Origin: a virus
Length of the DNA stretch: 64,000 nt
Reading direction: 5' to 3' (one strand)
Virus record (IMG/VR): IMGVR_UViG_3300044629_000431
Span: 32,001-96,000 of that record
Both the position numbers and the translations under genes were made by a program. Under the pieces are notes generated by a model. It ran no database searches, was not told where the DNA came from, and was given only the letters and a program-made list of their open reading frames with translations. Of this stretch, positions 1-51,351 are shown piece by piece. How positions within the stretch are numbered: position 1 is the stretch's first letter; the number at the start of each line of letters is the position of its first letter.

Positions 1-1939
1 CATCGCAAACTCCACTTACAGATGGAACACTTGTAAGTGTCATTGAGAAACCATCTGCAGAAACAGAAACAACTTTGTTGAACGTTGCAACGTTTGTAGA
101 AACACCTGCTTTTTGATATCTGATGATGGAATCAGATCTAATTCCTAAGAAAGACTTTCCAGGGCAAGTTACAATACCTGCTGAAGTAATTGTAATTCTA
201 TCGGTAGCATTAAACCCTGCAGGAATTTTCCTAAACAGAGAAGCATCAGCAGAAAATGCTGTTTTAAGTGCTGGAGTAATGCCTACGGCATTTTGATAAA
301 TTGATTTGATATCATCAGTTGAATAAGATCTTAATGATTTTACTGAACGAGCATTCAAGAGTGAATCATTAATTTTGAGTTGTTCGCCAACAATAAATGC
401 ACCAGAAGTCTGTGTTAAAGTAAGACTAGTGCCTGTAGGTGCGGTTGAAACGTATCCAGAGGCACCACTGCTTATACCCTTAACAAAAGAACCTGCAGGG
501 CATTGTGATGAGTTAAGAGACTCATTTAAAACCAATTCGGTATAAGTTTGAATATCATACAGATATAAGTCCCACTCTGTCGAAGAACCTGTATATGGCG
601 CATCACTTACATTGAGTGTATAAACTCTAGCATCTCCAATGTAGGTAGTTCCTGAACCAGTTGCACCCTTTCTCTGGTTAAAGAGTTTTACAGTATTTCC
701 ACTTGTATGTACACCTACAAATGGAGTTCCTACAACGTTATTAACTCTAAGAAGATTCCCCATTTCAAAGGGAACAAGTGCGCTATCGATTGTTTGTGTA
801 TCTCTTGGTTTATCTACATCTAAAATGGTTGATGATGGGATATCAATATCATATCCACGAACATAGGCGGTTCCTGGAGATACCTTATAGCATAAGAGAT
901 CATCTGATGGTTGATTTCCTTGCTCAGTCTTTTGAGTTGATAGGTAAATACCATCATTACCAACTCTATTGTTTAATGAGTTTAATGCGTCTACTGTAAA
1001 GTTTTTAAGAGCATAATTTCCAGACTCATCAAAAGTTCTCTTCGCAAAATAATCCTTTATAATAGAATATACTGATTTGTCTTGAAGTTTTTTAATCTGA
1101 CCATTATCAATTCTTATCAGTTCAACGAAATTTTTATCATCAAAGTCATCAATATCTTTTTTAGATAATACTGTACTTATTTTAAATCTATCGGCACCAG
1201 GTGCTGCATAATTTGAAAACCCTCTTGCATTATCATTTAACGATTCATCATCACTTGAGGTTATAATTTCTTCTAGAATGTTTAAACCAACTCTATATGT
1301 TGGAGTATTTGAATATGGTTCCAGAATAACTAACGAGTTCTGAACATTTACAAACGTTCCACGTATGAAGTAAACACCTGCACTAAGACCAACTGCAGAA
1401 CCAGTCGCGGTAGCAGCAAAATCTACCAGAGTAGCAACTGTATCTCCAGAATTGATGGATGTATTTCCATAGGTCAAACTATCTAAAAGGATTAATAACT
1501 CACCATCTTCAAATACGTTTGTCTCAAAATCAGATCCACTTCTTACATACTTAACATATAAAGTTACATCTTCTACATTTTCACTTGGTGGTAAACTATA
1601 GTTTTTAACTACAGCAGTTACTCCCGAATTTTGACCTTCTACTCTCTTACCAATAAGTTGATTTAGATATAAAGAAACATCAATACCTAAGTGCTCGGCA
1701 TTAATTTTTACTGAGTAATACTTATCATCAAATGTAATGGATCCAGGAATAACCATAGATCCTTCTTTGAAAATATGACTACCAAACGACTCAATTTGAT
1801 TTTGTAGTATTGACTGTAGAGTCGTTAATTCTCTTGCCTGTATTGGATATCCTGGTTTAAACAAAACCCGATAAAAATTATTATCGACATCAAAATCGTC
1901 GAAATATGGGTTAATGTTGAGATTAGTTTTCTGTGGCAT
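1..1939 (-). CDS. Virion structural protein, VrlC/DUF4815-like (partial, runs off the left edge)
   Basis: Not in the ORF track. Manual translation from the ATG at 1939 gives MPQKTNLNINPYFDDFDVDNNFYRVLFKPGYPIQARELTTLQSILQNQIESFG, the typical N-terminus of this cyanomyovirus protein, which follows gp8. Confidence 0.85.
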   Translation of the reverse strand, partial: MPQKTNLNINPYFDDFDVDNNFYRVLFKPGYPIQARELTTLQSILQNQIESFGSHIFKEGSMVIPGSITFDDKYYSVKINAEHLGIDVSLYLNQLIGKRVEGQNSGVTAVVKNYSLPPSENVEDVTLYVKYVRSGSDFETNVFEDGELLILLDSLTYGNTSINSGDTVATLVDFAATATGSAVGLSAGVYFIRGTFVNVQNSLVILEPYSNTPTYRVGLNILEEIITSSDDESLNDNARGFSNYAAPGADRFKISTVLSKKDIDDFDDKNFVELIRIDNGQIKKLQDKSVYSIIKDYFAKRTFDESGNYALKNFTVDALNSLNNRVGNDGIYLSTQKTEQGNQPSDDLLCYKVSPGTAYVRGYDIDIPSSTILDVDKPRDTQTIDSALVPFEMGNLLRVNNVVGTPFVGVHTSGNTVKLFNQRKGATGSGTTYIGDARVYTLNVSDAPYTGSSTEWDLYLYDIQTYTELVLNESLNSSQCPAGSFVKGISSGASGYVSTAPTGTSLTLTQTSGAFIVGEQLKINDSLLNARSVKSLRSYSTDDIKSIYQNAVGITPALKTAFSADASLFRKIPAGFNATDRITITSAGIVTCPGKSFLGIRSDSIIRYQKAGVSTNVATFNKVVSVSADGFSMTLTSVPSVSGVCD

Positions 1940-1942
1940 TTT

Positions 1943-3493
1943 TTAAAATTCCAGGATAATTTTAATATCTTCTTTTTGGCGAGTATTCCTAGAGATCAGA
2001 GGTCTGTTATCTAAGTAAATAATTTCCCCTGAGCCTTTATTTATCTCTGGAGAAGCAAGACCATTTGCAAAATTAACTCCTAAGTTAATAACTTTGCTTC
2101 CGGTTGGATTGGTTGAAATTCCTGTAAACGTTTGATCAATTGAACCAGAGAACCCACTAGGGGCAGTTACTGCATTAGAGGAGGACTCGAAAGATAAAAC
2201 TCTAGAACCAGTAGAAACACCGACATAATCGGTTTGATCTAAAGCACTTTGGTTGTAGTATAGTGATCGATCTTGAATATATTTAAGAACTTTTGTCTCA
2301 GTATCATATGATGCAACATACCCAACTGCCTTTCCATTAGTTACAGTTTGAGTTATTTTTTCACCTATAGTTGGAACCCCATTTGCAGAATTAAACTTCA
2401 GTGCATATAATGAAGAAAATTGACTTTGCGTATATGTTGAGGTTGAACCAATAGATGTTGGGTTTTTAACTATACCAACTTGAGCAAATCTAGTATCTAC
2501 TGGAAAATCTTTCGTGGAGTCATCAAATCTTGCATACAATAAAACTTTATCAGTTCCTAACTCTTTATAAAGATTGTATCCATGACCTCTTGATGGTGGA
2601 ATAATTGGAATTAAACGAGCAGGAGAACTAGTCGCATTGCTATTGATAGAACCTAAGTCAACTACACCATAACTATAACCTTTACCACCAGCAGAAACTG
2701 TTGTATTTGTAATTTTTCCACCAACTACATCAACAATAACTTTTGCACCACTACCGTCACCAAGTATATTAAACTCCTGTCCTAATCCATTAGAATAGTT
2801 ACCACCTTGACTGTCTATGTAAACTTTTTTAATTTGGTTATCATTTACAGTTGAATCGCCATTTTCTCTAACTGCTTGTATTTGAGCATCAGTAGAAGAA
2901 CTCCAATCATTTGGAACTGTTATATATTCTGTAGAGTCAAACTTTACAATGTCACTGGGCGATACACTAAAAAGATATTTCCAAATATAACCATCACCAC
3001 TTGACCCAGCTTTAGATGGTTCTAGATCTGTAAATGTTGGTTCATCCTGAGAAGCATTTCCTGTTGTATTGATTCCAGAAGAACCATTATCTATGCAAAT
3101 ATAAACTTTATAATCAGAATTCAATACATAGTAGTTCGCATCATAAAGTCTACTTGCTTGAGTAATCGGAGATGGATTGTTTACACTATAGTCATGACGG
3201 TACATTTCATATTTTGTACCTTTTGTCCAGTCAATTCTTCTGACAATTCTTTTAATATTTGCAGACGTTACCTTTTTACCAAAAAGCATAGTATCATAAG
3301 TATGCGATTGGTAACTAAAATTATCAGTAGGGTTTGGAACATTTGTATTCCAAGTCGTAGATCTACCAAACCCAACCTGAGTCGGATTTGGTAGACTTAG
3401 AAAAATATAATATGAATTGGAATCACTCCCAGCAGAATCAATAAAGTTATCAGTATTTAAAATTCTAAATTGATCTGTTACAATTGCAGACAT
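1943..3493 (-). CDS. gp8: Baseplate wedge subunit gp8
   Basis: 516 aa with MSAIVTDQFR start, VYICIDNG, DGYIWKYLF and C-terminal SGEIIYLDNR..QKEDIKIILEF; syntenic with gp7/gp6/gp25. Confidence 0.9.
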   Translation of the reverse strand: MSAIVTDQFRILNTDNFIDSAGSDSNSYYIFLSLPNPTQVGFGRSTTWNTNVPNPTDNFSYQSHTYDTMLFGKKVTSANIKRIVRRIDWTKGTKYEMYRHDYSVNNPSPITQASRLYDANYYVLNSDYKVYICIDNGSSGINTTGNASQDEPTFTDLEPSKAGSSGDGYIWKYLFSVSPSDIVKFDSTEYITVPNDWSSSTDAQIQAVRENGDSTVNDNQIKKVYIDSQGGNYSNGLGQEFNILGDGSGAKVIVDVVGGKITNTTVSAGGKGYSYGVVDLGSINSNATSSPARLIPIIPPSRGHGYNLYKELGTDKVLLYARFDDSTKDFPVDTRFAQVGIVKNPTSIGSTSTYTQSQFSSLYALKFNSANGVPTIGEKITQTVTNGKAVGYVASYDTETKVLKYIQDRSLYYNQSALDQTDYVGVSTGSRVLSFESSSNAVTAPSGFSGSIDQTFTGISTNPTGSKVINLGVNFANGLASPEINKGSGEIIYLDNRPLISRNTRQKEDIKIILEF

Positions 3494-3511
3494 ATTATTA
3501 GCTTTTTTCTA

Positions 3512-3519
3512 TATTTATA
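3512..3519 (-). promoter_or_regulatory. T4-type late promoter (TATAAATA)
   Basis: Exact TATAAATA on the minus strand, 18 nt before the gp8 start. Confidence 0.8.
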
Positions 3520-6500
3520 CTACACATTAGATTGCTTTCGCAGTGCTCCAGTATCTCTTAAACCAAATCCTCTTCTTTGAATGGTTGGGAATGTACTCAA
3601 ACCAGAATCAACAGTTAGACCAGATACTCCAATTGCAACTGGTGATGAAGCTCTAGACAACCCAGACAGTTTGCCCCAAGAATATTCTCCACAAGTAGAA
3701 ATTCCAGAAGTTTGTATTCCAGTTATATTAGTATCAGACTTAACATTTACAGTAATTACTGCATTTGTCCCAGAAACAACTAGATTTGATACAAAGTAAA
3801 TATTGTCAAGATAAGACGTGCTAATTGCAACTACTGCGCTGTTAGAATCATAAAGTGAAGTTACTCCATTACCAACTAAAGTGTTCTTAATAAGGAGAGG
3901 ATAACCAGTATTCAAACCTGTAAATGCGCTTGGTCCCTGAACAAAGAAGTTAAGTGCCAATGGATTTCCAGAAGTACCAGTGGTAGTACTAATGCCAGTA
4001 ATAATTCCAGAAAAACCTTCAACAGTAGTAATATTAGTAACTTGCTCAACTTGTATATCAGGATAAGAAACAATTACTTGTGGTGGATTTGTGGTTGTAT
4101 ATCCAAAACCAGGACTTGTGATGTTTGTTGAAGATATTGAACCACCAACAATAGAAACTGTAGCAGTTGCAGTCGATCCAACTCCAACTCCTATTGCTTT
4201 TGGAGCTGCTATTTTAACAGTAGCAGTTCCAGTGTATCCACTACCAGCATTAGTGATGGTTAAAGCAGAAATTGTTCCAGCAGCAGATACTGTCGCTGTG
4301 ATAGCGGCAGAAACTGGATCATTTGCTTGAACGATAATACCATCAACATCAGTTATTGTTATTGCATAGTTATTTTCTTCGTAGTTAAAGAACTGAGCAT
4401 TATCAACGAATATTTCAGTATCAGTAGATTTAATATCTTTAATAATTTTTGATGTTGGATAAATTTGAGTTTCTAATGAATCTCTTGACTTGGATACAAC
4501 ATCACCATTTATAACCTTATCTACTTTTTGCTTAATCCAAGTTAGTGGTTTGAAGAATGTTTCATCAATTCCAGCACCCGTATAAATGTTTGTTTCAATC
4601 TTATCAGATCCAACAATATTTGTTATATCTCTAATTTCTTGAGTAACAGTTGATGGATATTCATTATTTCTGAATATTTGAACAGAATCACCTATTTTAA
4701 GAGTTTCGTTGATGTTGACGGTGAACGAATCTGTTCCTCTAGTTCCTCTATAGAAGAATACGGCAACATTATCTTCAGATCTTGGGGGATCTGCGAAGAC
4801 AAAAGATGTTCCACCTTCAAATACATATGAAGTTCCTGGTTCTTGTGCAACACCATTAATGAATATGAGAAGAACAGCGTTCAAATCAATATTAACAGAT
4901 GATGTGTCACTTGGATCAATTTCAAAACTTAGCAACTGACCATTATAGTAAAGTGGGAATCTCTTTCTTACACCATTTTGAAGATTTTTGATAGAATCGA
5001 TATAATCAAGTTCACCAAACTGCCAGAATGAGAATGAATCTGTAAAGACATCTAATACTGTCAATTCAAAATCCTGTAATGGAGCACTTAAACCTCTGGC
5101 AGTTACAAGACCAACAGGTTTAAACTTGTCGCCAATTCTAAATCCATATCCAGGTCTTGCAATTTTGAAAGAAGAAACTTCAAATAATGTTGAACCAATA
5201 CCTGTAGTTGAAATTGCTCCAACATCTAAAGTTAGTAGTAAGTTGGAACCAGTTACTGTAGTTGAACCAATTCCAGCTCTGTATGTACCAACAACTGATA
5301 AGTTTTCATAAGATGGTTGAGGAACATTAATTTTAACCGTAGATGTATTATATCCAGTTCCACCGCTGTTTACCACAAAACTTAGAGTTCCACCAGCACC
5401 AACAACCGCAGTAATGCTTGCTGCGGTTCCTGTGTGACTTGAATCAGTAATTGCGATAGAAACGGGAGATCTATAACCAGAACCAAATACGTCTAAAGTT
5501 CCAAGTCCAACCGAAACAATGCTTCCACCAGCACCAACAACAGCGGTTACTGCTGCACCAACTAAAGGCGCAAACCCAGCGCCAGAAGTTGAACCAAGAG
5601 AAACTATTACGCCACCTCTTGGTAGTTGATTTTGATTAACATCTGACGAAATAACAATTTGTCCATTTGTAGAAGTTATTCCACTAAATGTTACGCTTGA
5701 AATTCCAGTCCCAAATCCACCAAGAGAGAAATTATTTCCAGCATTATTATCTGTAGTTGGAGTTTGGAAGATATCATTCAAGAATAGAACGCCATTTCCA
5801 GTTTCAATACCAGTTGTGTTAATTCCTCTTACAGTTAATGTGTAAGTTTGTCCAATACCAGTGAAACGATCTGAAATGTCATCATATATTGTATTTGTTG
5901 CATAATCATTTCTAAGATATACTCTTCCAGTAAATGTTGTTTTTGGATATAAAATATTTGATCTATCTCTGATCTGTCTTGGATTTCCTTTTGGTGCTTC
6001 GGTAAACCAAATTTTATTTTTGGTAATATTATAAGCACCTCTATAGATTTCAACAGGACTACCATCGTTATGAGTTGTAGCAGAACTACCAACAAATCCA
6101 CGATTAACTTGAACCAGAGGGAATGTACCTAGTCCAGTTATTGGTCCAGAACTTGTAGTTCCAAATCCAACTTCAACAACATTACAATATTCACTGCTGA
6201 TCTTAAGAACATCTTTTGGTTTGATGGAAGAAATTCCAGAAAGTGCAAAATAAGTTGTAGCAGTGCTAACTTGACCAAAGTTATTGGCAACATTATAAGA
6301 AATTGGGACGAAGGATAGTGGTTTTTGTACCACGCCGTTCAATGAAATAAGACTCTTCTCTAATTTCTTAGACATTTCAAGAGTATGAACGTTACCACTA
6401 CCAACTGCTGTCGTAAACGTTACATAAATTCCAGCATTTGCATACTGCTTTTTAGTTGAAAGTCTGAACTGACTATCATTAATTTTTAAAGCATACACAA

Positions 6501-9500
6501 CTGGGGGTAAAATATTTGTAGTAACCCCAAGATAACTTTCAGTTAAACCTATTCCTATTCCTGTGCCTGCAACTCCAACAAATGAAGAACCTGGTTCATA
6601 ATACAATTCTTCTCCAGTGCTGAAGAAATGATTTGGAATGGTAAATATCCCAGTTTCTGGATTTAATATACTTGTTGTAAATGGATTAAATGTTTTGACA
6701 AAAATTGGAGTTCCACTATATCTTACATCAAAATCTAATCTGTTTGCTCTGTTTCCATTGATTGCATCATATGCTGACAACTGAACTAATGAACTTGCAG
6801 TTCCATAATCCAACTGTTCTGGAGTATTGTCATAATCATTTGTATCATAAAGAACTTCACTAAAACTTTGTACCTCAACATTTGCACCGATAGATGCATC
6901 TGGATAAAACTTAAGATATGCTTTTGAGCCTAGTATTTCTCCACCAAATGTTCCAATTCCAGAAGTGCTTCCAATTGATAAGAATGGATATTGGACTGTA
7001 TAAACATTTGTCTCATCTTGAAGCATCAATACTTGATGAACTGCACTGGTGTTTCCGTATGAAACTCTAACTATTGATTTTAGAGCAGAAACATTTTCCG
7101 TTGATACTCCAATTACACTTGTGGAACCAGAAGAAACTGTATAGTTAGACTCATATCTGGCACTACTTTCAGATCCTTCTGGCTGACCATCTGCTAAAAA
7201 TCTGTATGTTCCAACGCCAACTGCAGTTGTACCAAAACCAACAATATTTGATCTAACTAAAATTTGGTTACTTTCGGTATTATAGTATGTTACGGTTAGA
7301 ATACCTGATTGAATAGAGGAATCAAAGACTCCCATGTAATTTGACGAATTTCCTTCTGTACCAGTACTATCAAAGTAAAAATCAGATTGATATGTGTTTG
7401 TTCCGTCGTGATCTAAGAACAACTCAACATAATTCATTTTGTTGGTAACTGTATTTAAAATTTCAATATTTGCATAAAAACTATCAAAGTTATTTGTACG
7501 GTAAGATACTAATTTTACAGTAGTGCCAACTCCAACTACAGTATTGATACCTGTTAGATTTACAAATCCAACACTTTGAGTACCTATTCCATTGACTATA
7601 GAATTAAATTTATTTTTGATAATTTTGATATCATAATCAGTATCATATGGATCTGCTGGAGTAAATCTTAAAGTTTGCGATTCGCTATCACTTTTTCCAC
7701 TTAACGTTCCTAAAGGAATATCAGTGTTTGTTAAAAATGCTTTTTCTAAAACATAAGCATTTGTATCATCTTTTAAAGCAACAATTTCACTAACTTGTCT
7801 TTCCGATGATGCTGGGTCTAAAATTTGAATCAAATACTTAGAGTAAGTATCATCAAAAGTATCAATATCAACAAAAGGTTCTATTCCAGTTTCTTTATTT
7901 GAGAATCTGGAACTAATATTGTCCATTACCAAAACTCTATTGCTAACACACTTAATATAATCTGTTAATTTTTTGTTTTGGAATTTGATAAACTTAGATT
8001 TAGTTTGATTTGTCGAAGTGTCAACATCTACCGTCAAATCTATGTTATTAATAGCATCGACTCTTTTTTCTTCAGTAACATCTAGAACAATAGTATCATT
8101 GGTCGTTGATGCGTATGAGACGACACTATCAGATTCTGAGACAACTTGAGTGTCTGAGAAATTTTTCAATCCAGAAGTATGGAGAAGTCTGTTAACAGGG
8201 TTTACTAAATCTTGATATTGAATTTTGCTTCTTACGGAGTAAGATAAATTCTGATAATAGTCATTATCTGAAGTTACTTGATAAGTTTCGTCAAGTTTTC
8301 CAGTGTCTGTTGTCCACCCATAATCTTGTCTTGATGCATAAGAAACTTCAAAATAACCAGCATTGTTATCCAAACTTTGAACAGTTGCTTTAACACCAGA
8401 ATTTTTTCCTTTTAGTCTCTCTCCGACTTCTAAAATGTACGAACCAGATATTTTAATATAATTTCTTGTGCTATCAGTAACTGATAAATCTCTTTCAATA
8501 TATCCAGTTCCAGTATCAGTCAATAGTTTTTCATTTTTTTCAAACAATGCAAACTCTTGAGTTGTGTCAAATGTTGGATAGTTTCTCTTGGCGATAATAG
8601 TCGCATATCCTTGATTTGTTTTTGCCAAACCTGCATTAGTTGCTATTCCTGCAAGGTTAAACTCAACAACTGCTGGGTTTGTGTTGTAATATGCGCTAAC
8701 TGTAAAGAAGCGATATCCATAATCTGCAGAATTAAATCCTTGACCACTAGGATTGTCTTTTTCAATCCCTTCTACAAAAATTTCTTCTCCAGCAGAGAAC
8801 ACATTAGTGGTAAATCCTAGAATTGGTGTTGAAATAACACAAGTTACAATACCTGCTGGAGATGAAGTGATTGAACTAATAGAAACTCCGTTATCGTTAT
8901 CAACAGCGACAATTCTTTGTTTTGATGAGTTTAATCCATATGGTTGAGAAATGATATTAACAGAACTAATTGCGCTACCAAATAATGAACAAGAAAGAGA
9001 GTTGGAATCGATCAGTGTTCCAGTATCAGGATCAACAATAACTAAGTTTGGTGCAGAAGAGTAATTTTTTCCACCATATAGTACATCAATATCACTAATT
9101 GTGTTTGAATTTTGAATATAAACAATTGGAGATACTGCTGCTTCAGGTTTTAAAGTCTTATCGGATGAGTATTCGAAACCATAATTTAAAATTCTGGTCT
9201 TGTTAATATTTCCTACTTCTGTTGACTTAGCAACAAGGTTAGCGTTTTCACCACTACTGGATGAGAATCCAACAAACTTTGGAAGTTTTTTGTAGTTATA
9301 TCCACCAAAAATAGTTTTTAACTTGCTTACCCCACCAGAAGCAGTTGGTGAAGATGTTGAATATTTTAAAGTATCACATTGAGATTGTGTAAGTGTGTAT
9401 TTTTCTGGAGTTTTTCTTAGCGCAATATTAAATGTTGTGTTTCCTACACCAGTTACAACATAATTTCCATTGTAAGCACTATCAACAAAAGAGATTTCCG

Positions 9501-12500
9501 AATTAAATTTAACTTCTTTATCTGAAGTGCTGATGTATCCAGAGTTTTCTAAACTATAATACAGTTTAGAAGGAATACCACTAGAATATTTGAGAGTAAA
9601 TGTTGCGGTTGAGGTAATTCCAACAGTTCCTACACCTATGGTGTTGAATGTGTTGGTATTTCCTACCGCAATAAATTCATTATTAAAGTTTTGGTCATAA
9701 AATATCTTTAATTTTTTACCTTGCAGAGAAGAGTGTGAAACATTAAATACTAGATCGGAATTTTTAACTACTGGTATTTGTGGGTTAATTAAACTGAGAC
9801 TATGTTGTGATCCACCAGCACCCACAATACTGACCGTATTCGGATATGCAAGAGTAGTATCCAAATAAGTATCAGTTAATTTAATAGTATTGTCATCAAT
9901 TTTGTAAACAAAATATGTTCCAGTTTCTAATCCAGATGCAATTGAATCACTTGAGTCATAAAATACTTTATCTCCAGTTTTTAAGTTTGATGCGTCTAAT
10001 GTAATTCTTGAACTGGATGTATTAATTCCAGTTGAGTTAAATCCAATTGGATTGACTAAAATTTTATCATACTCTTGGTTATACCTTAGTATAACTGAAC
10101 CAGATGTTCCTATTCCAGTTGTAACATTTGGTTCAACATTAAGTGATATTGTATCACCAATTTTTAATCCATGAGAAGTTGAAACGGAAACTCTAGAATT
10201 AATTTTTTGAACTTTTCCAGTTACTTGTGTCGAAAGACCGGAAATATTATATTCATAATTATCTGAACCATTTGTTAAGAATGAAAGACCCTCAGTATTT
10301 GTAGTAAGACCTACAAGAGTTGCAATTCCAATATAATCTTTTGATTTGTTAATGATATAAACAGTTTGGGAATTTGAAGACGCTGGTAAGTTTACAGTAG
10401 TAGCACCTTGATCTGCTGAGCATATTAATGCAGATGCGCCAGACTGTTTAGCGAAAGAAACTTGCTGACCTGTCTTGAATGGGTGATTTGGAATGTAAAT
10501 GCTCTGATTGGGTACAGAAACATTTTTAGATACACCACCAACAGTGTTTGACACATTCGAAGACAATCCTAATGTTGTTCCAACACCTACACTTTGCCTC
10601 GAATTAAAGTATATAACGTCTCTAACTTTTGAATCAAAGTAAGATGCCTTTACTGGTATTTCTATTTTGTTTGGAAGAACATTGATTGGAGTTGATGATG
10701 TATGTGCTACTCCAGTATCAGATCTTCTTACCCTTAAGATAGATCCTTCATTATAAACATTCAGTACTTTAACAGTCTCAGATCCACCAATTCCTATAGT
10801 GAGAGTGCTTCCTACAGAAACTGATGCTGGAATAGTTGAGACAAAAATGTCCTCAACTGTTCCTGGAGAAACAACAGCACTTATATTCTTAAGTAATACT
10901 AGTGTATTAGTAGTAACACCAACTTTATGAGTTCCTGTAAGTTTGTATATTGTTGTAGATAAACCAGAAACGGTAACATATTCATTATCACTTACGGTAT
11001 GATATGGTGTAATGTATGCTTCGATTGTTTCTTTATCTTTCCAAACAAATATTGAATTTGAATAGGTCTCTACTTCTGTAGAAATTTCTACAATTGGTTT
11101 ACCTTCTACTTCAGATATTTCAAGACTTAAACCACTTCCATTTGTTCCGGAATCATCAAAGACAGTATTTTCTCCAACACGATATCCATCACCCGAATTT
11201 AAGATTGAGACGGATGTTACAGAACCTTTAGTTACAGATTCTATTTTTGTTTGTTGGTTAACTATTTCATTTGATTCTATGAAGAAGTCATTATCGGCAT
11301 ATTTTTCGCCAGCCTTATATGGGAAGGTATTTCTTACTAACCCAGAATTATTGAAGTCAAAAGTTTGATTTAAAATAAAGTTGTCAGTATTGACATTTGA
11401 TCTGTATGAATCTCCCACAAAGTAGGGATATGCTGGTGTTAATGTGCTTGTCGCAGGGTTTGTTGTGACTCCAACAAAGTAGGCATAAGTTCCATTAGGA
11501 AATTCTGGAGTTTTGCAGAATCTTCCATTATGAACATCTAAGTTGCCAGAATTTGTAAATCTATAATCATCGACAAAAAATCCGCTACCAAAAACTGATG
11601 GTCTGTTTACAACATTTGATGTATCTAATACATATCCACTTTGAATTAAACTGATAGGTGAAGATGTATTTTGTGGGTCTGAGTATCCAAAAGGTCCATA
11701 TATTGGGTTTCCATCATATGCCCAACCAATAATTGGAGAGTGGTTTACACCATTATCATTAAACTCAGTTCCTAAAACACTTGTGGAATATCCAACAACT
11801 GAATATTGTAAATTGTTTAGTGTTTCAATTAGTGTATCTTCGGTGTTTCTATACTGTTCATTTAACGTTAAACTTCTTACTGAAGATGTTAGTACTGCTC
11901 CAGAACCAGATGGGATTACATTAATTGTTGTAGTTGCTTGATTATAGTTTACACCAGAATTAATAACAACAACATCAACCAGTTTTTGATTTGAAATTAC
12001 AGGTCTCAGTATAGCACCATACCCATCCCCTATAATTCTTAAATTGGGAACCGAGTAATATTCAGAACCACCAGATAAAACTTGAACATCTATAATTCTA
12101 CCGTTTTTAATGATTGGTGCAACTTCAGCATTTTTGCCAGTTTTAATGGTAATGTTTGGATTTTTACTAAAGTTGATAATATCTGAACCATAACCAGTTC
12201 CCTGTTCATACAGATATGCATCAACTATTTGACCTTTAATTACTGGTGTTGCAGTAATTACTCCAACTACGCTGCTGCCAAATGAAACATTGACTGTTAC
12301 TTCAATATTTGGATATTTGAAAATATGGTATCCAGAACCAGTAGAGGAAAGTTTTACATAGTTTCTTCTCTCATAATTTGATGAGATAGATGCCCCGATA
12401 CCAGCATTTGCAAGTTTAAATGAATTATTGTCTGTCTTTAAAATATAATAAGAATTTGCAGTAGATAAACCAGATATTGGAGTACCAGTTGTTTCATATC

Positions 12501-31892: not shown

Positions 31893-32116
31893 TCAAACTC
31901 TCCAGTGCGATTATGTGGTTTAGAGTTTTTGAGTGAATAAACTTCTGTGCTCAATGTTTGAACGGCACTATACAGATTGCTTTCGACTTGATTCACTTTA
32001 TACTCAAGGTTTCCCATCTGACGATACAGATTCAAACAAAGTAAAAGGTTACCTGTGATGCCAATGACGATTGACCATCCGATAAGTTGCTCAAGTCGTT
32101 CTTCACTCAGTTTCAT
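31889..32116 (-). CDS. Membrane-anchored coiled-coil hypothetical protein
   Basis: ORF track, start trimmed to MKLSEE. Confidence 0.55.
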   Translation of the reverse strand: MKLSEERLEQLIGWSIVIGITGNLLLCLNLYRQMGNLEYKVNQVESNLYSAVQTLSTEVYSLKNSKPHNRTGEFE

Positions 32117-47760: not shown

Positions 47761-47964
47761 TTATATTTGTGTTTCCTGTTCTCTTCGCATTCTATCTTGA
47801 TCTTCCCTTCTATTTTTTGCTTCTATTTCATGATAGGCGTGTCTTCTCTGCCAAGCAGCATTACGAATATTTTGCCTTGCTGCAGAAGTAAGAGTTGCTA
47901 TTTTAATTTCTTTCCTATCAGCAGCAGATAACATTTGCTCCTGAAATTCCTGAAAGGTTTTCAT
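47761..47964 (-). CDS. Putative internal head protein
   Basis: MKTFQEFQE N-terminus resembles the T4 capsid-targeting sequence; ATAAATA at 47981-47987. Confidence 0.6.
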   Translation of the reverse strand: MKTFQEFQEQMLSAADRKEIKIATLTSAARQNIRNAAWQRRHAYHEIEAKNRREDQDRMRREQETQI

Positions 47965-47979
47965 TCTTAAACTTTTTAG

Positions 47980-48541
47980 TTATTTATGTAAAGACTTTAC
48001 ACCATTCAGAACTTCTTGAAAACGTTCGGCACGACTCTTGTGGTGCTCTACATTCTCCTCAAGCACACTCACAATATCGTCCAGGACAACATCCAGAGAC
48101 GCATCAGTATCAAAGTATTGTTGGATTGCTTCGGCAAGATACCGCCGCCGACTCCATTCCATACTATAGGGTTTGTAGTCCATAATCATAGTGTATATGC
48201 GGGTATTATAAAGTATTTACTCTTGGTTGTCAAGTTCTGCTAGGTAATCTGTCCACCATTGTGGATCTTTTTTCATTTTCCAGTTGGGAACTTCTTTACC
48301 GTGTTCAAAATACCATCTCCATATTGCTTCATCTATTACTTCAGCAATCTCAATCCTTCTCTGCCTCTTCATCAACGTCTCCATATGCATTTTCCACATA
48401 GGGTCCGTGTTCTCGTTTTGCATCTTCTCGGACATAATTGACTTCGGATACGCTAGAGGACAACCAGACAGATACTTTCATTATAAGATATATAACCGCC
48501 AGTGGAAGAAAACAAAGTGAAAGTATGACGGCGTGTTTCAT
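47980..48541 (-). other. Small hypothetical genes (47980-48189, 48217-48435, 48350-48541)
   Basis: ORF track. Confidence 0.55.
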
Positions 48542-48738
48542 CGATTTTTTCGATCATATTGATGCCATTTACACCAACCATCAGGTGAAATCTTGCCTTT
48601 CACAGCAGTACAGGCATTAGGTTCTCTCCACATATTGCAATTAGTACACTTTTGGTTACCTTTTGGTTCGTTCTGATACTTTGCAGTTGCTTTTGATGCC
48701 TTTTCTTCTTCCGATAGAAACTCTTGAAATGATTTCAT
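48538..48738 (-). CDS. High-potential iron-sulfur protein (HiPIP)-like, 66 aa
   Basis: AKYQNEPKGNQKCTNC..W.EP..C..VKG.ISP.GWC.W: all four HiPIP Cys ligands plus YQ and GWC. Confidence 0.8.
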   Translation of the reverse strand: MKSFQEFLSEEEKASKATAKYQNEPKGNQKCTNCNMWREPNACTAVKGKISPDGWCKWHQYDRKNR

Positions 48739-48935
48739 TATTCTTTCTCCAAGCACTTTTCAAACTTATCTCTCAACTCATTCAGTTTAACTTGATGTTG
48801 AAACTCCATAATATGATCTTTTATTTCTTTCTCCTCTTCAGTAAAGTTCATGCGATATTTGAGTTTAGTATCAACAAGACGCACCATTTCCATATAGAAC
48901 TCAGTGCCTTTATGAATAAACTCTTCGTAGGTCAA
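48738..48935 (-). CDS. Hypothetical protein
   Basis: 65-aa ORF. Confidence 0.65.
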   Translation of the reverse strand: MTYEEFIHKGTEFYMEMVRLVDTKLKYRMNFTEEEKEIKDHIMEFQHQVKLNELRDKFEKCLEKE

Positions 48936-49249
48936 TCCCTAGTCCTCCAATCGGTTTCGTCTTCATCACGTTTAAACCAATCAAGAAGTTCATCAGGACT
49001 GTCAAAACCTCTTCTACCAAATCTTTCGTGCCCTAAACCACCAATGTCCATTGAGTTTAGGAAGTCATCCATTTCATCCATATTGGGATTTTCTGCTTTA
49101 CGTCTTGCCTGACGGAGCATTGTTCCAGCAGAACGATTTGCTTTTGCAAGTTTCTCTGCCCAAATCATATCTTCTAAACTCACCTCTTCGTGAAGAACAA
49201 TCTTTTCACAGATTGCTTCAAGTCTCAACCGATACTGCGTAGAGAGCAT
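48932..49249 (-). CDS. Conserved cyanophage hypothetical protein
   Basis: MLSTQYRLRLE.IC..I...V.L.DMIWA.KL; ATAAATA at 49271-49277. Confidence 0.75.
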   Translation of the reverse strand: MLSTQYRLRLEAICEKIVLHEEVSLEDMIWAEKLAKANRSAGTMLRQARRKAENPNMDEMDDFLNSMDIGGLGHERFGRRGFDSPDELLDWFKRDEDETDWRTRD

Positions 49250-49269: not shown

Positions 49270-50076
49270 CTATTTATTTTCATATTCGTCCATCAACTCT
49301 TTTGCAAGTTTCATAGAACGACGATGCATCATATATTTTACCACAGGATTTCTTGGATTGTGTAACAACCACCACTTTTGCTTCTCATAGTTAGCTTTTG
49401 CTAACTTAAGCACATAATAAAAAGCAGCAGCGACACTATCATCAGTTACGATGAAGTATGCCACTACTGTGAATACGATAAACCAAGCGTAATAAGTCAT
49501 CGTCTGATAGTTTTTAGATAGTCTAACACGTGCTCACGCACTGCCATCAATTCATGATAGCATTTCTGATTATGAGCACATTGACGAAGTTCGTGGTCTG
49601 GTTTATGAACACTTTCAATGAACAGATCAAGACCACGGTTCCATTTGACTTCAGGAGTTTCTTCCATAATGTGCCTTATAGTTACACTATTTAACCAAGA
49701 AATTGATCCAGACTGGAGACCGATGCGCCTTTTGCGGACTTTTGAATGTAGGTTTTTGCGGACTTGTAGTTGTTGGCAACGTGAACCTGTTGCCCATTGT
49801 GAATAATCATAAACTTTTTACCAAATGGAACTGCTGCCCACATACCATCTTTGGTCACATAACCTTGAGGATCTCCTGGTTTTGCATCAAGAATACCAGG
49901 ACGGTTGATGAAAGGTTTTTGAAAATGTTCCGTCATCCGAATACTGCAGTGACGCCAATGACTTTAGCACTTGGGTTACGAGCAAGTGCAGTTCGCTTTG
50001 CATCATTGTAGTCTTTTGCTTCAACGATCTCATCAAAGACCTTACCAGCAATGTAGAGTTGGACTTTGCAGCGCAT
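49270..50076 (-). other. Four small conserved genes (49270-49500, 49497-49667, 49691-49936, 49933-50076)
   Basis: ORF track plus manual translation (MEETPEVKWNRGLDLFIESV..., MRCKVQLYIAGKVF...). Confidence 0.65.
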
Positions 50077-50115
50077 TGGAGTTTCTCCTGATGTGTGGAT
50101 AGTATAGCAGAAAAA

Positions 50116-51351
50116 TCAGCGTTTGACAACGCTGATGGCAGGAAGACCCTGCTGAAACACGGTGTCCACCACCGCTTGGACCTTCTTAGCGGTGCTGATG
50201 CCCACAGAAGAGTAGACAGGGATACAGACCAACCCAAAGGACTTGGTGTAGTCCTGAAGGGCACCAGGGGCGATCCTGCCGCTGCTGAGACCCTCTGCAT
50301 CGTCCTTGTGCAGGCGGATCACCCGTCCGATGGTCTGGGAGATGCCGATGTAGTCCATGGACCGCATAAACAGCACTGCCTCCAGACCAGACACGTTGAT
50401 GCCCTCGCTCAGAATGCTGTGGTGCAGAACCACAAACTTCTTAGAGTCATCCTTGCCCCAGGCACTCAGAGTGTCGAAGAACACCTCACGGTTGACCTTC
50501 TGACCGTCGATGATAGCACCAGTCTTGGACGTGATATACATCCAAGAGAAACCACGCTCCTCCAGTTGAGTGCAGAAGTCAGTCTGAGAAACCAGAGAAA
50601 CGATCTGCTTGGTTGCTTTAGAGCAGATCAGAACCTTGCCAACCTCTTGAGCATCAATAGTCTGAATGAGGTTCTCACAGTCAACGTCAGCGACGATCTG
50701 ACCCTTGCTGAGCATCTCAAACTGCTGCACCACAACCTTAGGAGGAACGATGAAACCACCGTCCACCAGTTCAGGAGCAGGAACATTGCAGATCACGTTG
50801 CCATAAACGGCAGCGTCATTCATACCAGGTTTGGAAATAGTAGCAGAATGCTTAGGAGTAGCAGTGAAGAAATAGCAGCGGTCAGCATTAGCAGAGAAGT
50901 GCTCCGTAGCAGGGAAAAAGTGACGCTGAACGCTGTTGTGTGCCTCATCAAAGTAAATGGTATCAACGTGAATATCTGCCTGCTGAAGACGCTGCAGGGA
51001 GTTATAGGTGGTAAAAATGAGTTTGTGACCCTTCGCTTGCTCATACCAGGCACGAATCACATTGGGGCGAGTGCTGCTGAAGTGGTGCGTCTCACCAGAA
51101 TGGACGTGCAGAACCTGAGCATTTGTGATAAACTCAAGGAACTCGCTGGACAACTGCTCTGCCAGGAGGATGCGCGGAGCACAGACTACAATAGTCTGAG
51201 GAGTATTTTTCAGAAACTCACGAATAGCATCAAAGATAGCGATGTTGGTCTTGCCGCCGCCAGTCGGGATAATCACCTGACCCTTGCGGTGTTGCAGCAG
51301 GGCATCCAGAGCACGTTGCTGGTGGGGACGGAGTTGAATCACTGACCTCAT
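50116..51351 (-). CDS. Superfamily 2 DEAH helicase (type III Res-like)
   Basis: LRPHQ, PTGGGKT, DEAH, TATP, SEGINV, QTIGRVIR; early promoter module at 51365-51420. Confidence 0.9.
   Translation of the reverse strand: MRSVIQLRPHQQRALDALLQHRKGQVIIPTGGGKTNIAIFDAIREFLKNTPQTIVVCAPRILLAEQLSSEFLEFITNAQVLHVHSGETHHFSSTRPNVIRAWYEQAKGHKLIFTTYNSLQRLQQADIHVDTIYFDEAHNSVQRHFFPATEHFSANADRCYFFTATPKHSATISKPGMNDAAVYGNVICNVPAPELVDGGFIVPPKVVVQQFEMLSKGQIVADVDCENLIQTIDAQEVGKVLICSKATKQIVSLVSQTDFCTQLEERGFSWMYITSKTGAIIDGQKVNREVFFDTLSAWGKDDSKKFVVLHHSILSEGINVSGLEAVLFMRSMDYIGISQTIGRVIRLHKDDAEGLSSGRIAPGALQDYTKSFGLVCIPVYSSVGISTAKKVQAVVDTVFQQGLPAISVVKR

Follow-up and report, generated by a model that had tools for sequence, protein, structure and literature searches.

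A predicted internal head protein with a minimal HiPIP domain behind a capsid-targeting-like leader in a T4-related lake cyanophage

Background

A twin-arginine translocation (Tat) signal and a periplasmic location are typical of the family of high-potential iron-sulfur proteins (HiPIPs), although they do not define it. Here, we describe a gene for a 66-residue protein (positions 48538 to 48738, minus strand) in a 64,000-nucleotide stretch of viral DNA, hereafter the window, which spans positions 32,001 to 96,000 of the IMG/VR record IMGVR_UViG_3300044629_000431. The product very probably contains a minimal HiPIP domain, and in place of an export signal it begins with a decapeptide resembling the capsid-targeting sequence (CTS) of the internal proteins of bacteriophage T4. 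The record is a contig of 146 kb, estimated to be 69% complete, and the phage is a lake cyanophage related to T4. Reading from sequence, we put the probability at roughly 0.55 that the gene encodes an internal head protein of this phage, with a PioC-like [4Fe-4S] HiPIP as its cargo, which would be packaged and injected. What would be new here is a T4-type internal protein with a cargo class not described before; a full-text search of the literature found nothing linking phages or cyanophages with HiPIPs.

Small phage-encoded redox carriers are familiar from T4-like cyanophages in the form of plastocyanin (petE) and ferredoxin (petF). These are homologues of host proteins; they retain the targeting of the host and take part in its photosynthetic electron flow while infection proceeds. 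The phage HiPIP differs from these in bearing a head-targeting-like leader and in having no counterpart in the Synechococcus elongatus control genome, the single cyanobacterial genome searched with PF01355.

The closest described system for the domain is PioC of Rhodopseudomonas palustris TIE-1 (PDB 6xyv), a minimal HiPIP of 54 residues. It is a product of the pio operon and acts in the periplasm as a reductant of the photosynthetic reaction centre (PMC10304953). The phage protein resembles PioC in 39% identity over 49 aligned columns, in the cysteine spacing C-x2-C-x8-C-x12-C, in the Tyr-Gln and Gly-Trp-Cys motifs and in the predicted fold. It differs from its bacterial relatives in being the gene product of a virus of a cyanobacterium, and in carrying no signal peptide and a different decapeptide.

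For the leader, the closest described systems are IPI, IPII and IPIII of T4, which are likewise small and basic, begin with MK[ST][FY][QK]EF followed by [IL]-x-E, belong to a genome with a gp21-type protease and are one of several leader genes per genome with unrelated bodies. In sequence, the mature part of the phage protein resembles none of them, and no resemblance is expected, as members of the internal protein class share only the CTS (PMC3012670). Further differences are the cargo, a metal-cluster redox domain, the cyanobacterial host and the residue after the predicted cut (Glu versus Ala); the targeting and cleavage of the phage protein are predictions from sequence.

Additionally, closely related HiPIP-like domains are carried by polyvalent and head-internal phage proteins (MuF, InPase, DarB-type; PMC5512222), implying a destination in the head interior. 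These are large multidomain fusions packaged by covalent linkage, whereas the phage HiPIP stands alone with a predicted cleavable tag of ten residues. The closest cultured relative for the gene is the freshwater Synechococcus myovirus S-SRM01, whose orthologue gp061 (YP_010670036.1; UniProt A0A879R316) is 86% identical, has the same leader and lies downstream of a phrog_507 gene. It is a "hypothetical protein" in GenBank, its automatic UniProt name notes only the HiPIP profile, the genome paper makes no mention of it (PMC8557907), and we found nothing published on the leader.

Results

Translation of the open reading frame (ORF) gives 66 residues (MKSFQEFLSEEEKASKATAKYQNEPKGNQKCTNCNMWREPNACTAVKGKISPDGWCKWHQYDRKNR), with the N-terminal start MKSFQEFLSEEEK. 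Orthologues 80-100% identical were returned from 86 viral contigs by a related-locus search, and pairwise Nei-Gojobori estimates over 52 distinct orthologous sequences gave a ratio of non-synonymous to synonymous differences per site (pN/pS) of 0.115 at a pS of 0.63, with synonymous sites near saturation. The ORF is a real, conserved gene; the alternative that it is not a gene was rejected on the strength of the 86 orthologous contigs and this ratio. The ATG of MKSF is the sole start codon common to all 49 distinct upstream contexts of the orthologous loci, many of which lack an in-frame start codon further upstream, and it is therefore the true start; a GTG start upstream, giving a product of 72 residues, was rejected on the same grounds. 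A GGAG-type site lies 12-16 nt 5' of the ATG in most of these contexts. PHROGs assigned no family to the ORF. Among 50,697 deposited phage records, proteins of this combined CTS-HiPIP type were found only in S-SRM01 and in one uncultured phage of 484 kb, and a search of 185,579 prokaryotic species genomes with the alignment of close relatives found only one scaffold. That scaffold (JBIPMW010000269.1, 8.4 kb) has an 84%-identical copy, is binned into a metagenome-assembled genome of a lake Crocinitomicaceae and is most likely a phage contig that was mis-binned.

A first-pass annotation made from the sequence had read a complete minimal HiPIP domain (YQ, C-x2-C, C, GWC) directly behind MKSFQEFLSEE. 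Both parts of this reading hold, as the translation confirms the N-terminus, the domain spans residues 12-59 and all the motifs are present. The Pfam search that the annotation had named as a check gave 25.0 bits to HIPIP (PF01355; cut-off 22, E 2.3e-5) for the 66-residue protein, and a six-frame search of the contig gave 23.9 bits for the same ORF. Across 141 relatives, Tyr21 of the YQ motif is invariant, and Cys31, Cys34, Cys43 and the Gly54-Trp55-Cys56 motif are retained in all or in more than 90%; Trp37, Gly54 and Trp55 reach at least 90% conservation in the close orthologues. The spacing of the four cysteines fits the HiPIP pattern C-x2-C-x(8-16)-C-x(12-13)-C, and they align with Cys22, Cys25, Cys34 and Cys47 of PioC (PMC10304953). 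PioC is also the best match among solved structures (E 1.3e-9), with its residue 3 opposite residue 12 of the query, and a profile of the 141 relatives matches it at E 1.6e-20 and retrieves the classical HiPIPs of Rhodocyclus, Thermochromatium and Allochromatium.

An AlphaFold (AF2) model built on the alignment of relatives has a mean predicted local distance difference test score (pLDDT) of 88, with 91-97 in blocks over residues 11-60 and its lowest confidence, about 62, over residues 1-10. The model predicts a HiPIP fold: with it as the query, Foldseek ranks 1-17 in the PDB are all HiPIPs, and it matches PioC with a target-normalised TM-score of 0.79 and a root-mean-square deviation (rmsd) of 1.4 Å over 49 columns, and the HiPIP of Rhodocyclus tenuis with an rmsd of 1.1 Å. 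Taken as a HiPIP-family domain of the PioC-like minimal type, the protein is thus assigned with high confidence.

The N-terminus departs from what is common in the family. An exhaustive HMMER search yielded 1120 representatives at E <=1e-3, and when 149 of the top hits were classified by their N-termini, 76 had a Tat-like leader, 49 had no long extension and 22 had another extension. The phage protein has neither a twin-arginine motif nor a hydrophobic stretch, the highest nine-residue hydropathy within its first 30 residues being -0.13. Its residues 1-10 occupy the position of the signal peptide of bacterial relatives and are extra relative to the PioC chain, since PioC residue 3 aligns with phage residue 12; for the same reason, a cut after Glu10 would give a product starting approximately where PioC starts. 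Further, leaderless relatives of 56-73 residues begin directly at the domain (MAKSSKATARYQ... and similar), and the decapeptide is therefore an add-on and not part of the HiPIP fold. In the model, residues 4-11 are helical.

The resemblance of this add-on to the T4 leaders lies in the positions that matter for function. In the T4 record, IPII and IPIII begin MKTYQEFIAE|A, which bears out the internal-protein start motif given in the first-pass annotation, and IPI begins MKTFKEFTSTTTPVSTITE|A (the bar marks the cut). Mutagenesis of the CTS has assigned targeting mainly to residues 4 and 7, and processing to residues 8 and 10 (PMC9026906). With Phe4, Phe7, Leu8 and Glu10, the phage leader matches IPII and IPIII at all four determinant positions, and among 44 unique orthologues these are conserved at 89% (Phe4), 98% (Phe7), 100% (Leu or Ile8) and 100% (Glu10), while positions 3, 5, 6 and 9 vary. 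The leader has a pN/pS of 0.17 at a pS of 0.64, and its synonymous sites diverge to the same extent as those of the remaining codons. Selection thus constrains the peptide and not the DNA; a conserved DNA recombination motif was rejected for the clade of HiPIP orthologues on this ground. As a description, the annotation's proposal that a CTS-type leader stands in place of the export signal is firm.

The enzyme that would process such a leader is encoded by the same contig. An S77 prohead protease of the gp21 type (positions 9111-9761 of the contig) is 47% identical to T4 gp21, and gp22 and gp23 of the T4 type are also present. When the gp23 of the contig is aligned to that of T4, the known T4 site GSFLTE|AEI stands opposite SFLSE|AP, and residues 7-10 of the HiPIP leader repeat the FLSE of this site exactly. 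An S77 protease was present in all eight of the complete leader-bearing genomes tested. After a cut at Glu10, the mature part would have 56 residues, a pI of 9.4 and a charge of about +6; it is basic like the internal proteins of T4, which are lysine-rich and lie among and contact the DNA (PMC3012670).

The leader is found on other proteins as well. Its pattern occurs twice in the window, and twice in the 146-kb contig, compared to none in 100 shuffles; the second occurrence is an ORF of 67 residues (Table 1), which lacks [IL]-x-E at positions 8-10 and may thus be targeted but not cut there. A homologue of this ORF lies directly 3' of the HiPIP gene in another orthologous locus (L038). In the IMG/VR contig L078, whose HiPIP orthologue is 80% identical, four more leader genes have unrelated bodies (MKTFKEFLEEA, MKTFQEFLEEA, MKSYQEFISEA and MKTYKEFISEH), and the five CTS-like genes (1792-3905 and 6001-6440) form two operons, each headed by ATAAATA, an arrangement that resembles the internal-protein loci of T4. 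A wider scan of IMG/VR, with a pattern that covered leader residues 1-7 only and left residues 8-11 unsearched, returned at least 121 matches in at least 118 stretches, nearly all at true ORF starts and on very diverse proteins, including true IPIII homologues. Among the matches listed, 95 ORFs of at least 50 residues were scored, and in the unsearched residues they follow the T4 cleavage consensus: position 8 is [ILMV] in 69%, position 10 is Glu in 53% and position 11 is Ala or Ser in 42%. ATAAATA lies within 60 nt upstream of 20% of these ORFs, and of 6% of the others (p 7e-6, odds ratio 3.9). Complete T4-like genomes have 2-4 leader genes each, and a reversed-pattern control gave none.

The cargos behind these leaders include the S-adenosylmethionine lyase family (PF23780), a nucleotidyltransferase of the poly(A)-polymerase type and DUF5661, and these ORFs are candidates for injected enzymes. 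The environmental viral ORFs with these domains behind the leader are found at L150:11564-12109, L145:1529-3025 and L087:8035-9123, all on the minus strand. The T4 capsid-targeting tag is thus widespread in environmental T4-like phages, on diverse cargos including the S-adenosylmethionine lyase, and the leader offers a simple sequence criterion by which to look for injected effectors in metagenomes. As a general feature of cyanophages the leader was rejected, being found in none of four reference genomes.

HiPIP-like domains also occur in phages of other kinds. In the ESM Atlas, 14 clusters of HiPIP-domain proteins of about 65 residues are all assigned to viruses, and the nearest relatives of the phage domain outside the Tat-exported forms are viral. 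Domains 45-66% identical over about 50 residues are fused to Phage_Mu_F, InPase, DUF2213, phage tail lysozyme and LysM+GH19, and in BFVD the fusion partners are Zeta toxin, XkdF, ParB, an SppA/ClpP-type protease, a prohead protease and a large helicase. The fusions come from uncultured phages (proteins P0094, P0087, P0144, P0131, P0100, P0111, P0038, P0048, P0053 and the BFVD matches), and NUDIX is a further partner. MuF is a module of head-internal proteins. InPase is found mainly in polyvalent phage proteins, which are likely packaged in the virion and injected (PMC5512222), and the HiPIP domain is absent from the catalogue of polyvalent-protein domains in that paper (Iyer et al. 2017). A HiPIP domain thus seems to reach the head interior by different routes in different phage lineages, as expected of the T4-like lineage if its leader acts as a CTS. 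The maximum-likelihood tree inferred from 48 columns of the domain has little resolution and does not show a single viral origin; the non-Tat forms group together in a weakly supported subtree (64 rows; approximate likelihood-ratio support, SH-aLRT, 80).

Late transcription, as of a head protein, is suggested by promoter motifs. The first-pass annotation had placed an ATAAATA late promoter two genes upstream of the HiPIP gene, and the motif is indeed there (Table 1). Of the 43 copies in the contig, 41 are on the coding strand, and 27 lie within 40 nt 5' of a called start, at 11-36 nt upstream, when about 2.4 are expected; many of them stand in front of structural genes in a common context, ATAAATAC[CT]TAAAAA. 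Through this placement ATAAATA gives a usable map of the late promoters of the phage. In most orthologous loci the motif is kept about 345-351 or 536-544 nt 5' of the HiPIP ATG, the spacing depending on the 65-residue ORF in between. It lies only 16 nt 5' of the HiPIP ATG itself in L078 and 27 nt 5' of gp060 in S-SRM01, and a one-off variant, CTAAATA, is found in the 70 nt before the homologues in S-PM2 and DSL-LC03. Since stops and starts overlap, the genes for the 105-residue protein, the 65-residue ORF, the HiPIP and the 63-residue ORF likely form one transcript. For this operon, the motifs are suggestive of late expression.

Interpretation and alternatives

Head targeting is supported by the gp21-type protease, the FLSE that the leader has in common with gp23, the late-promoter motif, the purifying selection on the leader, its presence on many cargos and the HiPIP fusions to head-internal modules. 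The protein would be made in the cytoplasm, mainly late in infection, and its cluster would be inserted there. Such maturation is natural for a phage HiPIP, because Tat-exported HiPIPs also gain their cluster in the cytoplasm before export. Residues 1-10 would then dock the protein to the scaffolding core of the prohead, and the prohead protease would cut after F-L-S-E10, a tetrapeptide that it must also cut in gp23. The basic and very compact holo-protein of 56 residues would be left among the packaged DNA and would enter the host with it, perhaps to act as soon as infection begins, in host takeover or in counter-defence, as other T4-type internal proteins do. HiPIPs are small and air-stable, which suits storage in the virion and passage through the tail.

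Several observations weigh against packaging. The total number of ATAAATA copies on the coding strand is not above the compositional expectation (41 versus 40.8), and therefore only the placement of the motif is informative. The HiPIP gene is one of a series of small ORFs and has sigma-70-like sites in its vicinity, so early expression is possible. None of the four reference cyanophages Syn9, S-PM2, P-SSM2 and S-CRM01 has a leader ORF, and the fourth leader match of T4 itself is gp61.1 (MKTFKEFIKE|DMVAG), which maps to a region of early genes and is not among the proteins known to be packaged. In addition, the residue predicted to follow the cut (P1') is Glu, compared to Ala in the T4 internal proteins, and to our knowledge the function of a CTS has been shown experimentally in T4 only.

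Some of these points would suit a cytoplasmic redox accessory that is not packaged, comparable to the product of an auxiliary metabolic gene: a soluble HiPIP that would pass single electrons to or from phage enzymes or assist the handling of iron or Fe-S clusters, with the 2OG/Fe(II) oxygenases encoded about 7 kb away as possible electron partners, and with an N-terminus that is a mere short helix or the well-translated A/T-rich start common to many phage ORFs. The lack of a signal peptide, the position in a run of small accessory ORFs, the leaderless forms of 56-73 residues, the nearby oxygenase cassette and the leader motif of gp61.1 outside the known internal-protein genes all agree with it. 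However, such a role leaves unexplained why exactly the four determinant positions of the CTS are conserved, why unrelated leader ORFs follow the gp21 consensus at residues 8-11, why FLSE recurs at the gp23 site and why other phages carry HiPIP domains joined to head-internal modules. Moreover, there is no conserved adjacent redox partner, as the upstream neighbour is near-core in cyanophages without a HiPIP, and we infer that a carrier at about +350 to +450 mV would sit reduced and idle in the cytoplasm. We regard the cytoplasmic accessory as the main alternative to packaging, and as rather unlikely. Delivery to the periplasm or thylakoid lumen, where a PioC-like donor would replace plastocyanin or cytochrome c6, is far less probable still. 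It draws on PioC being a periplasmic donor to the photosynthetic reaction centre (PMC10304953) and on some viral HiPIP domains being fused to peptidoglycan hydrolases that act in the periplasm, but the protein has no Tat or Sec signal, T4-type internal proteins enter the cytoplasm with the DNA, the 69%-complete contig has no plastocyanin or psbA gene that would suggest a photosynthesis module, and with no HiPIP in the S. elongatus control genome there is no known docking partner.

A further alternative accepts packaging and differs only in the role of the cargo. The HiPIP-like fold might have no redox role, its cluster, or zinc, stabilising a basic knob of 6.5 kDa that binds DNA or protein in the head, similar to the small metal-binding linker domains of phage polyvalent proteins. 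The basic mature part (pI 9.4) would fit, given the lysine-rich, DNA-contacting internal proteins of T4 (PMC3012670), and large multidomain proteins of other phages combine the domain with many other modules. Tyr21, Trp37 and Trp55, the aromatic shield of the cubane, are conserved as strongly as the cysteines, which argues for a real [4Fe-4S] site, and we consider this alternative improbable.

For a packaged and injected HiPIP, the number of molecules delivered bears on what it could do. CTS fusions in T4 reach 20-200 copies per head, and all internal proteins together amount to about 1000 (PMC9026906, PMC3012670). With tens to hundreds of copies per head by these figures, iron cargo and redox buffering, both proposed in the first-pass annotation, would by our own estimate be stoichiometrically negligible relative to the pools of the cell. 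The donor (oxidising) sides of the cyanobacterial photosystems are lumenal, where a protein delivered to the cytoplasm together with the DNA could not reach them. This, and a 69%-complete contig on which genes for psbA and plastocyanin were not found, speaks against the action on photosynthetic electron flow that the annotation had also suggested. Together with the lack of a HiPIP in the control host genome, these points favour an early-acting effector, and our best guess is that the HiPIP is either a small, air-stable, high-potential one-electron carrier or a basic binding module stabilised by its cluster.

The wider proposition, which we advance tentatively and at slightly below even odds, is that virions carry a functional [4Fe-4S] redox protein, loaded by means of a cleavable T4-type tag and injected along with the DNA, and that the HiPIP is a recurrent capsid-delivered effector module across unrelated phages, with a CTS in T4-like phages and with MuF, InPase and prohead-protease fusions elsewhere. 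If true, a virion-borne HiPIP would indicate a new, redox-based step as infection begins. The host first meets phage activity in the form of the proteins injected with the DNA, which include counter-defence factors in T4; an injected Fe-S electron carrier would be a new class of cargo among them, and we know of no other Fe-S protein inside the head of a tailed phage. A HiPIP in the virion would also add protein-bound iron, which bears on phage-associated iron in natural waters.

Neighbouring features

The features of the locus are collected in Table 1, together with the T4 gene that matches the leader outside the internal-protein genes.

Table 1. Features of the HiPIP locus (window coordinates unless another record is named).
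Feature	Coordinates	Strand	Basis or remark
66-residue gene: CTS-like leader (10 residues) and PioC-like minimal HiPIP domain, both predicted	48538..48738	-	Pfam, structure match and model; orthologues in 86 viral contigs; pN/pS 0.115
MKSFQEFLSE, codons 1-10: CTS-like leader with predicted gp21 cut after FLSE	48709..48738	-	T4 internal-protein leaders, CTS determinants, orthologue conservation, gp23 site
Cluster-binding segment Cys31-x2-Cys34-x8-Cys43-x12-Cys56 with W37 and G54-W55	48571..48648	-	Alignment of relatives; PioC register
GGAG Shine-Dalgarno-like site	48747..48750	-	12 nt 5' of the HiPIP ATG, within the 3' end of the upstream ORF
ATAAATA late-promoter motif	49271..49277	-	21 nt 5' of the ATG (49249) of the first operon gene; two genes lie between it and the HiPIP gene
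First operon gene, 105 aa, phrog_507 / "T4-like GC 49"	48932..49249	-	Near-core in T4-like cyanophages
65-aa ORF, TTG start, stop overlapping the HiPIP ATG (TAATG)	48738..48935	-	Only in some orthologous loci
63-aa downstream ORF, phrog_2832, hydrophobic N-terminus	48350..48541	-	Start overlaps the HiPIP stop (ATGA)
Second leader ORF, MKTFQEF (MKTFQEFQEQ...), 67 aa, basic, unrelated body	47761..47964	-	Leader-pattern search
ATAAATA in canonical context ATAAATAACTAAAAA	47981..47987	-	16 nt 5' of the second leader ORF
Sigma-70-like site (10 of 12, with TG)	50101..50129	-	Upstream of the small-gene run; consensus match only; regional count no higher than in shuffles
T4 gp61.1, 54-aa hypothetical protein upstream of the primase gene	NC_000866 18966-19130	-	Full CTS and cleavage-site match outside the three internal-protein genes

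By its behaviour, the 65-residue ORF is a small indel gene, being present or absent among loci with spacings of 536-544 or 345-351 nt, respectively. The sigma-70-like site upstream of the small-gene run is, as a consensus match, a possible additional promoter for early read-through. Additionally, a perfect sigma-70 consensus (TTGACA-17-TATAAT) is found at 48205-48233 on the minus strand, just 3' of the HiPIP operon and directed into the next small ORFs, so that promoters of the early and the late type alternate over about 1.3 kb.

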